DNA from: Eledone cirrhosa
Taxonomy: Eukaryota
DNA: 35,022 nt
Direction of reading: 5' to 3'
Assembly (NCBI GenBank): GCA_964016885.1
Contig: CAXHJY010000885.1
Location: 1-35,022, forward strand
Below are positions 1,469 to 6,670 of the stretch, one piece after another. Position numbers and translations under genes: made by a program. Each line of letters begins with the position of its first letter. Position 1 is the stretch's first letter. Below the pieces are notes generated by a model that was not told the DNA's origin, did no database searches, and was given only the letters and a program-made list of their open reading frames with translations.

Positions 1469-1911
1469 TGTATACATATATATATATATATATATATATA
1501 TATATATATATATATGTTGTAGCTCTGGTTCGTCAGAATTATTGAGCACTTGCCACTCGTCTCGGAAGTTGTTTTTCGTTAATTCCAAAGCCGAAATACG
1601 ATTCTCGTTAATTTATATATATATATATATATATATATATATATATATATATATATATATATATATATAAGTATGTATGTATACGTACATACATATATGT
1701 ATACAGACGTACAGTAGCATGCATATATATATATAGATATATATATACATATATATACATACAGGTACACATACATATCTGCACGCATCAGTTTAGCGGA
1801 CGCTTATTATAACGCCACTTTGTTCGTTTGTAAACAAACTGAACAGCCTGAATTTATGCCATACGGTGTTAAGGCAACCACGTCACCTTTTTGTTCAGCA
1901 CTGACACAGGA

Positions 1912-1954
1912 ACGATGTACTAGTTTCAAGCTTGTTAGCTATCATCAGCACCGT
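1912..1954 (-). ncRNA. Minimal type I hammerhead ribozyme (R1)
   Basis: Minus strand: acggtg CTGATGA t agc taacaa gct t GAAAC ta GTA catcgt; 6-bp stem I, intact core, palindromic ACTAGT stem III. Confidence 0.85.
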
Positions 1955-2390
1955 ATAACCATCTGCCAGATAGTTGAACGTTCGAAAGTATATACTTTCC
2001 TTATGAAAATTAACGGCTGAGCAGCCTAATTTGCATATTGAGTGAGTTAAATCGGTCAGGCATACCGAAAACGATAAGTTGAAAAAAATGAAAACGAAAT
2101 TTCATTTCTCACTCTTAGTATGGCACTTACTTAAATGTAAGTATGTATGTATACGTACATACATATATGTATACAGACGTACAGTAGCATGCATATATAT
2201 ATATATATATATATATATATATATATATATATATATATATATATATATATACATATATATACATACAGGTACACATACATATATGCACGCATCAGTTTAG
2301 CGGACGCTTATTATAACGCCGCTTTGTTCGTTTGTAAACAAACTGAACAGCCTGAATTTCGGTATGCCTGACAGATTTAACTCACTCAAT

Positions 2391-2438
2391 ATGCAAATTA
2401 GGCTGCTCAGCCGTTAATTTTCATAAGGAAAGTATATA
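2391..2438 (+). promoter_or_regulatory. Putative internal octamer + TATA promoter of R1 unit
   Basis: ATGCAAAT 2391-2398 and TATATA 2433-2438 upstream of the HHR at 2473; octamer also at 2029-2036, 4295-4302 and 4719-4726 (as ATTTGCAT). Function is inferred. Confidence 0.5.
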
Positions 2439-2472
2439 CTTTCGAAAGTTCAACTATCTGGCAGATGGGTAT

Positions 2473-2515
2473 ACGCTGCTGATGATAGCTAACAAGCTTG
2501 AAACTAGTACATCGT
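2473..2515 (+). ncRNA. Minimal type I hammerhead ribozyme (R1)
   Basis: acgctg CTGATGA(2479-2485) tagc taacaa gctt GAAAC ta GTA(2507-2509) catcgt; one mismatch in stem I. Confidence 0.85.
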
Positions 2516-3155
2516 TCCTGTGTCAGTGTTGAACAAAAAGGGGACGTGGTTGCCTTAACACCGTATGGCATAAATTCAAGCTGTTCTGTTTGTTTACAAA
2601 CGAACAAAGCGGCGTTATAATAAGCGTCCGCTAAACTGATGCGTGCATATATGTATGTGTACCTGTATGTATATATATGTATATATATATATATATATAT
2701 ATATATATATATATATATATATATATATATATATATATATATATATATATATATATATATATATATATATATATATATATATATATGCATGCTACTGTAC
2801 GTCTGTATACACATATGTATGTACGTATACATACATACTTACATTTAAGTAAGTGCCATACTAAGAGTGAGAAATGAAATTTCGTTTTCATTTTTTTCAA
2901 CTTATATATACATATATAGAATCAAAGTTGCTGCCGCCATTAGAATTTTTCGAAATCAATCTTTTGAGGCTGGCCAAAGCACTCGATGAGTAGATATCCA
3001 TAAATCGATAAATTATAGTTTAGATTAATGACATTACGTTAAGAGTGCGACAGTGAAAATTCCGACCAGAGACAAGTTACAACAAAAGCCACCACAACAA
3101 CGAAAATAGAAACAGGTTAAAGACAAACCTGGACCTGATCGATAGATATTATTAT

Positions 3156-3340
3156 GGATTGGCAGTATTGGTAGAGAGTCGGACGCCATGCTTTGACGCA
3201 TAGAGTTACGGCCTTTGCCATTCTGAGTTCAAATCCCGCCGAGGTTAATTTTCCTTTCATCCTTACGGGGTCGATAAAATAAAGTACCAGTAATCCACAG
3301 GGTTATTACTGGCCTTGTGCCTAACGTAGAAACAATTATA
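3156..3340 (+). mobile_element. tRNA-derived SINE, full length
   Basis: A-box-like tggcagtattggt, B-box gagttcaaatcc, central ctttcatccttacggggtcgataaaataaagtaccag (resembles the MetaSINE-type core, from recall), AT-rich tail. Confidence 0.9.
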
Positions 3341-3349
3341 TAAATAATA

Positions 3350-3450
3350 ACGAGGTTAACTTTGCCTTTCATCCTTACGGGGTCGATAAAACAAAGAACC
3401 AGTAATACACTGAGTAATTGCTGGCCTTGTGCCAATAGTAGAAACAATTA
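3350..3450 (+). mobile_element. SINE 3' half, tandem to previous copy
   Basis: cgaggttaactttgcctttcatccttacggggtcgataaaa...agtagaaacaatta. Confidence 0.9.
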
Positions 3451-4178
3451 TATAAATATCTTTGATTGGTTTTCAGGTAACCGAAAACTACACTCCAAGT
3501 TGCGTAACATGAGAGCCAGTAATTTATCCTAAGATGGAATGAGGATATCCCATTCTCAACAGGCATTTGGTTCCGTTTTCCATCAGAGTGGCTTAGTAAC
3601 TCCACTACAACCAAGTACAGTTGCAGTAATATTGGCAGTGGGGTCACGTGTTCTTTCTCAAGAAAAGCGTAAGATTCACATCCATGCTTTGGCGGGAAAA
3701 TTACTCAGAGCTATAATGTATCAATTTATCGATATCTACTCATTGCGTGCTTTGAACCAGACTCAGAAGATTCATTTAAAAAAATGCTGATCGTAGCTGT
3801 AACTTCGATAATTTACTCACTAATATATATATATATATATATACATATATATATATATATATATATATATATATATATATATATATATATATATATATAT
3901 ATATATATAAACGGAAAAAATGAAACGAAATTTCATTTCTCAGTCTTAGTACGGCTGTTACTTAAATATAAGTACGTATACGTACATACATATATGTATA
4001 CAGACGTACAGTAGGTTTGTATGTATATATACATACATGCACACATATATATATATGTACGTATGGATTCACCAAATATTTATTATAATGTTCGGTGTGT
4101 TTGTAAACAAACATCCCGAATTAAGCCGTACAGTGTCTAGCAACCAACCTTGCTCATTTGTTCAACACTGACAAAGGA

Positions 4179-4220
4179 ACGCTGTACTAGTTTCAAGCTT
4201 GTAGCTATCGTCAGCAACGT
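4179..4220 (-). ncRNA. Minimal type I hammerhead ribozyme (R1)
   Basis: Minus strand: acgttg CTGACGA tagc tacaa gctt GAAAC ta GTA cagcgt. Confidence 0.87.
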
Positions 4221-4602
4221 ATACCTTCTTGCCAGACGATTGAACGTCTGAAAGTATATACTTTCCTCATGTATATTAACGGCTGAGCAGCCTAATTTGC
4301 ATATTGAGTGAGTTAATCGGCCGGGCGCACCGAAAACGATAAACGAAGCAAATGAAACGAAATTTCATTTCTCACTCTTAGTACGGCTGTTACTTAAATA
4401 TAAGTATGTATACGTACATACATATATGTATACAGACGTACAGTAGGTATGTATATATATACATACATGCATGCACACATGCACGTGTGCATTCACCGAA
4501 CATATATTATAATGCTCGATGTGTTTGGAAACAAACATCCTGAATTAAGCCGTACAGTGTCTAGAAACCATCGTTGCTCATTTGTTCAACACTGACAAAG
4601 GA

Positions 4603-4644
4603 ACGCTGTACTAGTTTCAAGCTTGTAGCTATCGTCAGCAACGT
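4603..4644 (-). ncRNA. Minimal type I hammerhead ribozyme (R1)
   Basis: Same motif as 4179-4220. Confidence 0.87.
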
Positions 4645-5032
4645 ATACCTTCTTGCCAGATGATTGAACGTCTGAAAGTATATACTTTCCTTATGTATAT
4701 TAACGGCTGAGCAGCCTAATTTGCATATCGAGTGAGTTAATCGGCCGGGCGCACCGAAAACGATAAACGGAAAAAATGAAACGAAATTTCATTTCTCACT
4801 CTTAGTACGGCTGTTACTTAAATATAAGTATGTATACGTACATACATATATGTATACAGAGGTACAGTTAGTATGTATATATATATAAATGCATGCACAC
4901 ATGTATATAGGTACGTATGCATTCACCGAACTTTTATTATAATGCTCGATGTGTTTGTAAACAAACATCCTGAATTAAGCCGTACAGTGTCTAGAAACCA
5001 TCGTTGCTCATTTGTTCAACACTGACAAAGGA

Positions 5033-5075
5033 ACGCTGTACTAGTTTCAAGCTTGTTAGCTATCGTCAGCAACGT
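5033..5075 (-). ncRNA. Minimal type I hammerhead ribozyme (R1)
   Basis: Minus strand: acgttg CTGACGA tagc taacaa gctt GAAAC ta GTA cagcgt. Confidence 0.87.
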
Positions 5076-5517
5076 ATACCTTCTTGCCAGATGATTGAAC
5101 GTTTGAAAGTATATACTTTCCTTGAAACTAGTACAGCGTTCCTTTGACAGTGTTGAACAAATGAGCAACGATGGTTGCTAGACACTGTACGGCTTAATTC
5201 GGGATGTTTGTTTACAAACACACCGAGCATTATAATAAATGTTCGGTGAATGCATACATACATATATATATATGTGTGCATGTATTTATATATATATATA
5301 CATACTACTGTACGTCTGTATACATATATGTGTGTACGTATACATACTTATATTTAAGTAACAGCCGTACTAAGAGTGAGAAATGAAATCTCGTTTCATT
5401 TTTTCCGTTTATCGTTATCGGTGCGCCCACTCGATATACAAAATAGGCTGCTCAGCCGTCAATATGCATAAGATAAGTTCATATTTTCAGTCGTTCAATC
5501 ATCTGGCAGGAAGGTAT

Positions 5518-5560
5518 AAGTTGCTGAAGATAGCTAATAAGCTTGAAACTAGTACAGCGT
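5518..5560 (+). ncRNA. Minimal type I hammerhead ribozyme (R1)
   Basis: aagttg CTGAAGA(5524-5530) tagc taataa gctt GAAAC ta GTA cagcgt. Confidence 0.8.
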
Positions 5561-6670
5561 TCCTTTGTCAGTGTTGAACAAATGAGCAACGATGTTTGCT
5601 AGACACTGTACGGCTTAATTCGTGATGTCTGTTTACGAACACACAGAGCATTATCATAAATGTTCGGTGAATCCATACGTACATATATATATGTGTGCAT
5701 GTATGTATATATATACATACTACTGTACGTCTGTATACATATATGGATGTACGTATACATACTTATATATATATATATATATATATATATATATATATAA
5801 AGAACTTCGTATTAAAATCTAAAAACCGGTACTTGTTCGTCTTTAATCTGTTTGTATTTTCGTTGCTGTAGGCTTGTTTGTGGTTACTCGCCTCCGGTTG
5901 CAACTTTCACGGTGTCACACCCCTAACAACGTATTAGATATATACATATGTGTATATATATGTATATATATATATATATATACACACATCATCACACGTC
6001 GCACACATACATATATATATATATATATATATCTGGCAAATAACTATGTGTATACTCTGGTAATTTATCTTATATTGCCCATAGAGTGCGCTGAGATACA
6101 ACCAGTAGTAGCATTGATAAATATGGTGGGTTCGTCAACCCTTATATATATATATATATATATATATATATATATATATATATATATATATATATTTATA
6201 TATATATATAAATATATATTTATGTATATATATATATATATATATATATATATATATAGAGAGAGAGAGAGAGGGAGAGATACATTGTGGGGTTGTCTGT
6301 GTGAGTGTGTATAGACACAATTCCATGGATTATGAGACTACAATTTCTACTTATTGCTCTGACTTTAGACAATTAGGTGACTAGATAGCTGCTTATTTAA
6401 AGTGCCAGAAATAGTAGTGAAGATAGATTCTCTCCAATCACAATCTAATCTCTTAAAAATGTTAGAATACTTTTGATAATGTTGTGATGAATAATGTGTA
6501 TTGTGACAAATGATAGTATGGTCATATCATAAAGTCTGTTAAGAAGAATGCTTCATGGAGACTGACTTATCCTTAAAGAGCTGTTAGCACGCATATACAC
6601 ATACAGATAGACAGAGAGATAGATAAGTGTGTATGGATATTTGTGTACATTCACATTGGTAGCTGTAGAC

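Follow-up and report, generated by a model that had tools for sequence, protein, structure and literature searches.

When L1 elements insert by twin priming, the second primer lands upstream on a linear RNA, at a variable place, and the two arms do not overlap. For Penelope-like elements (PLEs) the origin of tandem and inverted structures is described as an open problem in PMC8557442, and a circular template has been proposed for PLE copies of more than one unit in PMC4209133, which also describes a metazoan type I hammerhead form as being active in dimers. In Poseidon, a PLE of Anolis, two adjacent internal start sites of the reverse transcriptase (RT) bound the tail (PMC11167929). The words 'inverted' and 'microsatellite' do not appear in the main text of a study of animal retrozymes (PMC7229834), and ribozymes are unmentioned in the available part of a recent octopus repeat annotation (PMC13282606). 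Here we describe R1, a repeat unit family of Eledone cirrhosa, starting from two arrays in contig CAXHJY010000885.1 of assembly GCA_964016885.1 (35,022 nt, an unplaced contig taken whole and called the window), and extending the analysis to loci throughout the genome, which are numbered L001 and so on. Two-armed R1 insertions combine two different fixed 3' ends, a pattern that we quantify here and that bears on how PLEs integrate.

The arms of both arrays were placed by mapping against real monomers. Array 1 consists of a left arm on the minus strand (1668..2359, subfamily B, 1.41 units), which abuts a (TA)n target run at 1614..1669, and a right arm on the plus strand (2357..2904, subfamily B, 0.99 unit). 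Array 2 lies between (TA)n target runs at 3823..3909 and 5764..5799 and consists of a left arm on the minus strand (3908..5123, subfamily A, 2.84 units with a period of 424-430) and a right arm on the plus strand (5121..5765, subfamily A, 1.55 units). An earlier note on this DNA had read both arrays as 5'-to-5' inversions with 3-nt joints, and the mapping confirmed this reading, with TTT shared by the arms of array 1 at 2357..2359 and CTT by those of array 2 at 5121..5123; the measured arm lengths also agree with the approximately 1, 1.5, 1.5 and 2.9 units given there. Its further claim, that all four 3' ends fuse to (TA)n at a TTA using just two sites of the unit, X and Y, proved correct in the window, and ends cluster at these sites genome-wide. 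The pattern that is absent from that note is that each array has one X end and one Y end: array 1 ends at X on the left (TTA at 1668-1670) and at Y on the right (TTA at 2902-2904), array 2 at Y on the left (TTA at 3908-3910) and at X on the right (TTA at 5763-5765). In array 1 neither arm is contained in the other, an arrangement we refer to as non-nested. The GC content of the window is 0.29-0.37 and the period of R1 is 424.

X and Y are located mid-unit on either side of a hairpin, 61 nt apart in subfamily A and 64 nt apart in subfamily B. The segment between them corresponds to the tail of PLEs. In array 1 this segment (2842..2904, plus strand) contains the AAATGAAA/TTTCATTT hairpin and is confined to the Y end, and in array 2 it forms a terminal tail of 61 nt (3908..3968, minus strand). 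Exact fusions to (TA)n, counted genome-wide with subfamily A patterns of slightly differing length, numbered 3,884 for X and 3,426 for Y, compared with 1 for a control TTA site. As the consensus unit of subfamily A offers 8 TTA sites and 54 TA dinucleotides, the ends cluster beyond chance. Both features that the earlier note had predicted for its proposed check by a catalogue of end points, clustering at TTA sites and non-integer unit counts, hold genome-wide. R1 targets the microsatellite (TA)n as Hydra PLEs do, and it exhibits the inverted, 5'-truncated copy and one-end tail by which non-autonomous PLEs are recognised. The long TA runs inside R1 are not preferred as end sites despite offering more pairing. 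A microsatellite-like internal part of the unit (e.g. 4401-4490 of the window) folds into a long hairpin that ends beside site X.

To catalogue the joints we used 190 loci and the window, excluding 20 PLE loci (L091-L110). Among 81 distinct head-to-head joints, 49 are X+Y (one being a tandem duplicate), none is X+X, none is Y+Y and none pairs the two subfamilies; in the remaining 32 one end is interrupted, of another kind or at an edge. The X arm is the longer one in 27 of the X+Y insertions and the Y arm in 22. The first exact X and Y ends of contig 1, 100 and 75 respectively over the range common to both lists, form 22 facing pairs no more than 5 kb apart, and 22/22 are X+Y, the expectation being approximately 49%; simple arithmetic gives a P of about 1e-7, with a few of the pairs lying inside local duplications. 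Supplements aside, our literature searches brought up neither a complementary-end rule nor PLE twin priming. Whole Y+X insertions are tandemly repeated with an identical joint at L161 (707-2264) and L140 (1493-5267), the two copies at L161 being parted by nothing but a TA run. Taking all data together, we favour the reading that R1 is copied into (TA)n by a Hydra-type PLE protein, with both nicked strands priming on the same RNA.

The unit itself is non-coding, 420-470 nt long and carries a type I hammerhead motif, features that fit a retrozyme of the kind lacking long terminal repeats (non-LTR retrozyme). The hammerhead core, unmentioned in the earlier note, is present in all six window units that cover it: on the minus strand at 1918..1948 (with a predicted cut after GUA at 1918), 4185..4214, 4609..4638 and 5039..5069, and on the plus strand at 2479..2509 and 5524..5554. 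It comprises CUGANGA, a stem II of 4 bp, GAAA and a palindromic minimal helix III that ends with GUA. Each of the six pairs of stem I is conserved in 155-162 of 165 distinct contexts; pair 3 is UG in 80, GU in 59 and AU in 10 of them, with UG and GU swapping between the subfamilies. The exact motif has 24,893 matches in the 3.0-Gb genome, compared with 0 for the control, and R1 loci are dispersed over many contigs at high copy number; the 67 distinct monomers divide into 24 of subfamily A and 43 of subfamily B. In Rfam we obtained a weak match to HH9 at 1894-1966 (20.8 bits, E 0.11), below the gathering score, and the other Rfam matches in 1500-6000, mostly TA-driven microRNA families, were dismissed as low complexity. 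We also rejected satellite DNA, which forms long head-to-tail arrays with unrelated ends, whereas R1 has fixed 3' ends, a median arm of approximately one unit and a longest arm of 7.5 units. The R1 region (1669-5765) contains no open reading frame (ORF) for RT and GIY-YIG, by which an autonomous PLE is defined, and its stop-to-stop frames of at least 100 amino acids are microsatellite-driven and code for no protein. R1 is very probably a retrozyme that is moved by a PLE.

The arms also inform on the form of the template. Mapping succeeded for 49 arms from 60 end-anchored loci; 31 of these arms run across the ribozyme cut site and 2 end at most 8 nt away from it, and 5' ends near the cut site show no pile-up (9/239, with 9.6 expected). 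Read-through of the cut site and the lack of a 5'-end pile-up rule out a cleaved linear monomer as template. Unit variants recur periodically in three of 15 long-arm loci plus the window, with period 2 at L136 and L139 and period 3 at L068, a pattern that could be due to multimer circles. In the 4.6-unit arm at L136 (1837-3773) successive units alternate in internal TA length (6, 7, 6, 7 and 6) as well as at the majority of 15 variant sites. On balance we lean towards a circular template. The best surviving alternative holds that two-primer insertion takes place on uncut linear multimers made by read-through of a small number of long source arrays; in this view the hammerhead is a passenger and no circle is formed. 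Arrays of 6-7.5 units do exist, read-through of the cut site suits a circle and a multimer alike, Poseidon insertion in vitro is independent of cleavage by the hammerhead ribozyme (PMC11167929), and 8/9 frog retrozyme dimers remained uncleaved in vitro (preprint 10.64898/2026.07.22.740005). We nevertheless regard this alternative as unlikely, if still deserving some weight, in view of the conservation of core and stem I with its compensatory swap and of the period-2 and period-3 patterns; moreover, with median arms of approximately one unit, linear copying would be expected to shorten the arrays in every generation.

The relationship between the two arms of an insertion was assessed by rare alleles. 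In subfamily A these were shared with the own partner arm in 48/286 cases versus 244/14,711 with other arms, and in subfamily B in 46/84 versus 56/2,745; in 46 of the 55 insertions that could be tested, an arm lay nearer to its own partner than to the median of the other arms. Sharing was also evident in non-nested insertions alone (16/100 versus 54/3,878). As 67 of the 94 alleles shared between partners recur in a third arm, most of them are variants of the source rather than products of local conversion. The lengths of the two arms, in turn, are independent, and the two 5' ends are unrelated: their distance is uniformly distributed (n = 80, Kolmogorov-Smirnov p 0.29), with 10/80 pairs within 5% of a unit where 8 are expected. 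These results make two primers on one template the probable arrangement. The joints are blunt in 4/81 cases versus 80/242 in the simulation and the median overlap is 3 versus 1, although inserted bases are present at 24/81 joints. A joint is better read as the annealing of two complementary DNA (cDNA) ends than as one RT changing its template. The earlier note had proposed a circular or multimeric template with template switching; the template part stands, since arms cross the cut site, and switching gives way to cDNA-end annealing as the better fit.

The same data bear on a second alternative, in which one arm is the product of target-primed reverse transcription, while its partner comes from fold-back or self-priming, either on this first cDNA or, as PMC3846280 proposed for rotifer PLEs, with an antisense template, and is trimmed to the other site by an endonuclease. 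Fold-back accounts for alleles common to both arms, some joints lie within natural palindromes of 15-16 nt (L111 and L124), 31 of 48 X+Y insertions are nested, and allele sharing is greater in the nested classes (35/101 and 12/31) than in the non-nested one. It does not account for the 17 of 48 X+Y insertions, array 1 of the window among them, that are non-nested, nor for 5' ends that are no closer to each other than expected. We therefore consider fold-back rather improbable. Non-nested arms with independent 5' ends instead favour priming from both strands of (TA)n, which had been suggested in the earlier note and is supported here.

The inversions are not solely a product of assembly, as raw Illumina reads of two samples contain several identical opposite-strand joints of the R1 family. 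For the joint at 5121-5123 no bridging read or contig was present among the matches listed, which came from filtered records and possibly from different individuals, and looking for another copy of the window locus in the assembly turned up other repeat copies alone (at most 85%). A pair of independent insertions into the same (TA)n run, or an assembly artefact, followed by gene conversion would agree with this unbridged joint, with the window being an entire unplaced contig and with window arms that are no more similar than random copies, yet such a history is very improbable given that the arms are joined directly with no TA between them, that X+X, Y+Y and mixed-subfamily pairs are lacking, that most shared rare alleles recur elsewhere and that opposite-strand joints are found in raw reads.

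We thus return to two primers on a common RNA, for which the following course can be envisaged. Tandem R1 transcripts would be cut by dimeric hammerheads and ligated to circles, or kept as uncut multimers. A PLE protein, probably a dimer, would grip the X-Y hairpin tail and nick both strands of the self-complementary (TA)n. One 3'-OH would then start at Y and the other one at X, each by TA pairing over 2-5 nt, and each RT would copy for a random distance, which on a circular template may exceed one unit. Finally, the cDNA ends would anneal via short microhomology and fill-in would complete a head-to-head insertion with a one-sided tail.

The link to PLEs that the earlier note had drawn agrees with what is published on PLE anatomy and with this genome's autonomous Hydra-type PLEs, which have RW[KR], DKT and CxCx5C motifs and are of Hydra type as defined in PMC8557442. 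The window itself harbours a 5'-truncated, broken Hydra-type PLE (26843..29020, plus strand) with a GIY-YIG frame at 27300-28049 and a long 3' site followed by (TA)n; we infer that it represents the class of helper used by R1. Pfam missed the GIY-YIG frame and the clade was assigned by motifs instead. Autonomous Hydra-type PLEs have two 3' ends as well, a short and a long one. In the family of the window's PLE (40 loci) 18 loci have two facing classifiable ends, 17 being short+long and 1 long+long, and five chosen pairs of a second family comprise 3 short+long, 1 short+short and 1 with a single end. The long end of the L171 family resembles site X over about 8 nt, which is too short to count as a helper link. 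At L133 (4242-4847 and 5585-6828) a truncated GIY-YIG PLE arm directly abuts an R1 arm, 5' end to 5' end; this joint occurs twice, in inverted orientation, and as a single lead may reflect co-insertion of a helper and a passenger RNA. L251 (928-3790) and L254 (1396-3553) represent young families of Hydra-type PLEs that have hammerhead motifs of their own; their open frames measure 954 amino acids (L251, an intact frame) and 719 amino acids (L254). In a first look each search returned about 60,000 GIY-YIG candidates in the genome.

Several observations weigh against the proposed course of events. Many insertions show a single arm, and the catalogue was filtered before counting by removing arms that lie wholly in the low-complexity part, very short X arms included. 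The window arrays carry no shared-template signal (quantiles 0.64 and 0.89, within versus between loci), and two units of array 2 have four variants in common that the partner arm lacks. The periodic variants also fit local duplication. At the gathering score Rfam gave no hammerhead match in window 1500-6000 and no match at all in four loci, and free folding of the six hammerhead regions did not result in a full hammerhead, helix III being absent; the z-scores of these regions were between -0.42 and 0.43 for five of them and -1.63 for one. The 3' regions of three autonomous PLE families have no homology to R1, and of further families just fragments were available to the search. The autonomous families include exceptions to the pairing of ends, namely long+long at L230 and short+short at L261, the latter with identical flanks. 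Finally, with the anole Poseidon protein the two strands did not differ in start site in vitro (PMC11167929).

The window contains additional repeats. A second hammerhead-like family at 24807-24950 takes the form of an almost perfect head-to-head palindrome flanked by (TA)n runs, with a short copy at 26759-26808, and similar motifs occur in tandem at L094 (310-nt spacing) and at L241. Further inverted pairs are located at 24149-24483, 2921-3029 with 3700-3809, 29076-29190, 30423-30557, 22277-23585 and 23628-24041. In copies of the repeat at 3470-3820 found elsewhere the two parts lie on opposite strands, so that other families may share the head-to-head design. Broken fragments of the long interspersed nuclear element (LINE) type are present at 13510-15492 (plus strand, matches to Exo_endo_phos and RVT_1) and at 9330-11239 (minus strand, a weak match to zf-RVT).

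Already known are retrozymes as a class, inverted insertions, a tail on one side, the bias towards (TA)n, the pair of start sites and, as an idea for L1, twin priming. What is new is the quantified complementary-end rule, X+Y, which provides a genomic test of the open PLE mechanism: with its thousands of short, non-coding copies, R1 allows the reaction to be read from its products. Twin priming, rather than the self-priming proposed in PMC3846280, is favoured by the X+Y rule, by the template common to both arms and by the independence of their 5' ends; these findings also predict that in the existing in vitro PLE system the strands of a single target molecule should differ in start site. Tentatively, PLE integration in general may be a two-primer reaction in which one protein dimer grasps the tail of a single circular RNA and assigns one start site to each nicked strand, a generalisation for and against which we see nearly equal grounds. 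If it is true, two RTs circle the same RNA, and the 'optional' tail, the inverted pseudo-long terminal repeat (pLTR) and the more-than-unit arms are outcomes of one mechanism, common to autonomous Hydra PLEs and their retrozymes.

R1 resembles the animal non-LTR retrozymes (PMC7229834; preprint 10.64898/2026.07.22.740005) in being built of tandem non-coding units that are some hundreds of nt long, poor in GC and equipped with a single type I hammerhead each, in numbering thousands of copies and in its likely dependence on PLEs, and its hammerhead, with the palindromic helix III, is similar to the metazoan type I form of PMC4209133. It differs from these retrozymes, as they are described there, in forming head-to-head pairs rather than head-to-tail tandems, in a unit slightly longer than their 170-400 nt, in its (TA)n targets and in its internal (TA)n hairpin. 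For R1 no parent pLTR was found. With the PLEs of PMC8557442 and PMC3846280 it shares an inverted copy that is both truncated and joined at its 5' end, along with a tail at one end only, and with the Hydra and Naiad clades the (TA)n targets (PMC8557442); in contrast to PLEs it has no ORF and its tail measures 61-64 nt instead of 30-40. Moreover, the one-end tail is described in these sources as occurring 'often' or 'optionally', whereas it is found in 49/49 classifiable X+Y insertions of R1. Sites X and Y are reminiscent of the start sites of Poseidon, where both target strands are cut and extended and the protein is predicted to be a dimer (PMC11167929). Poseidon is autonomous and belongs to another clade, and its published description, which gives no strand difference in start site, does not deal with how sites pair within an insertion. 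As in L1 twin priming (PMC10760644), a second priming event at the target site and microhomology-mediated joining of the cDNAs would give rise to the inversion, but in R1 neither start site varies, and the arms overlap each other and are longer than one unit.

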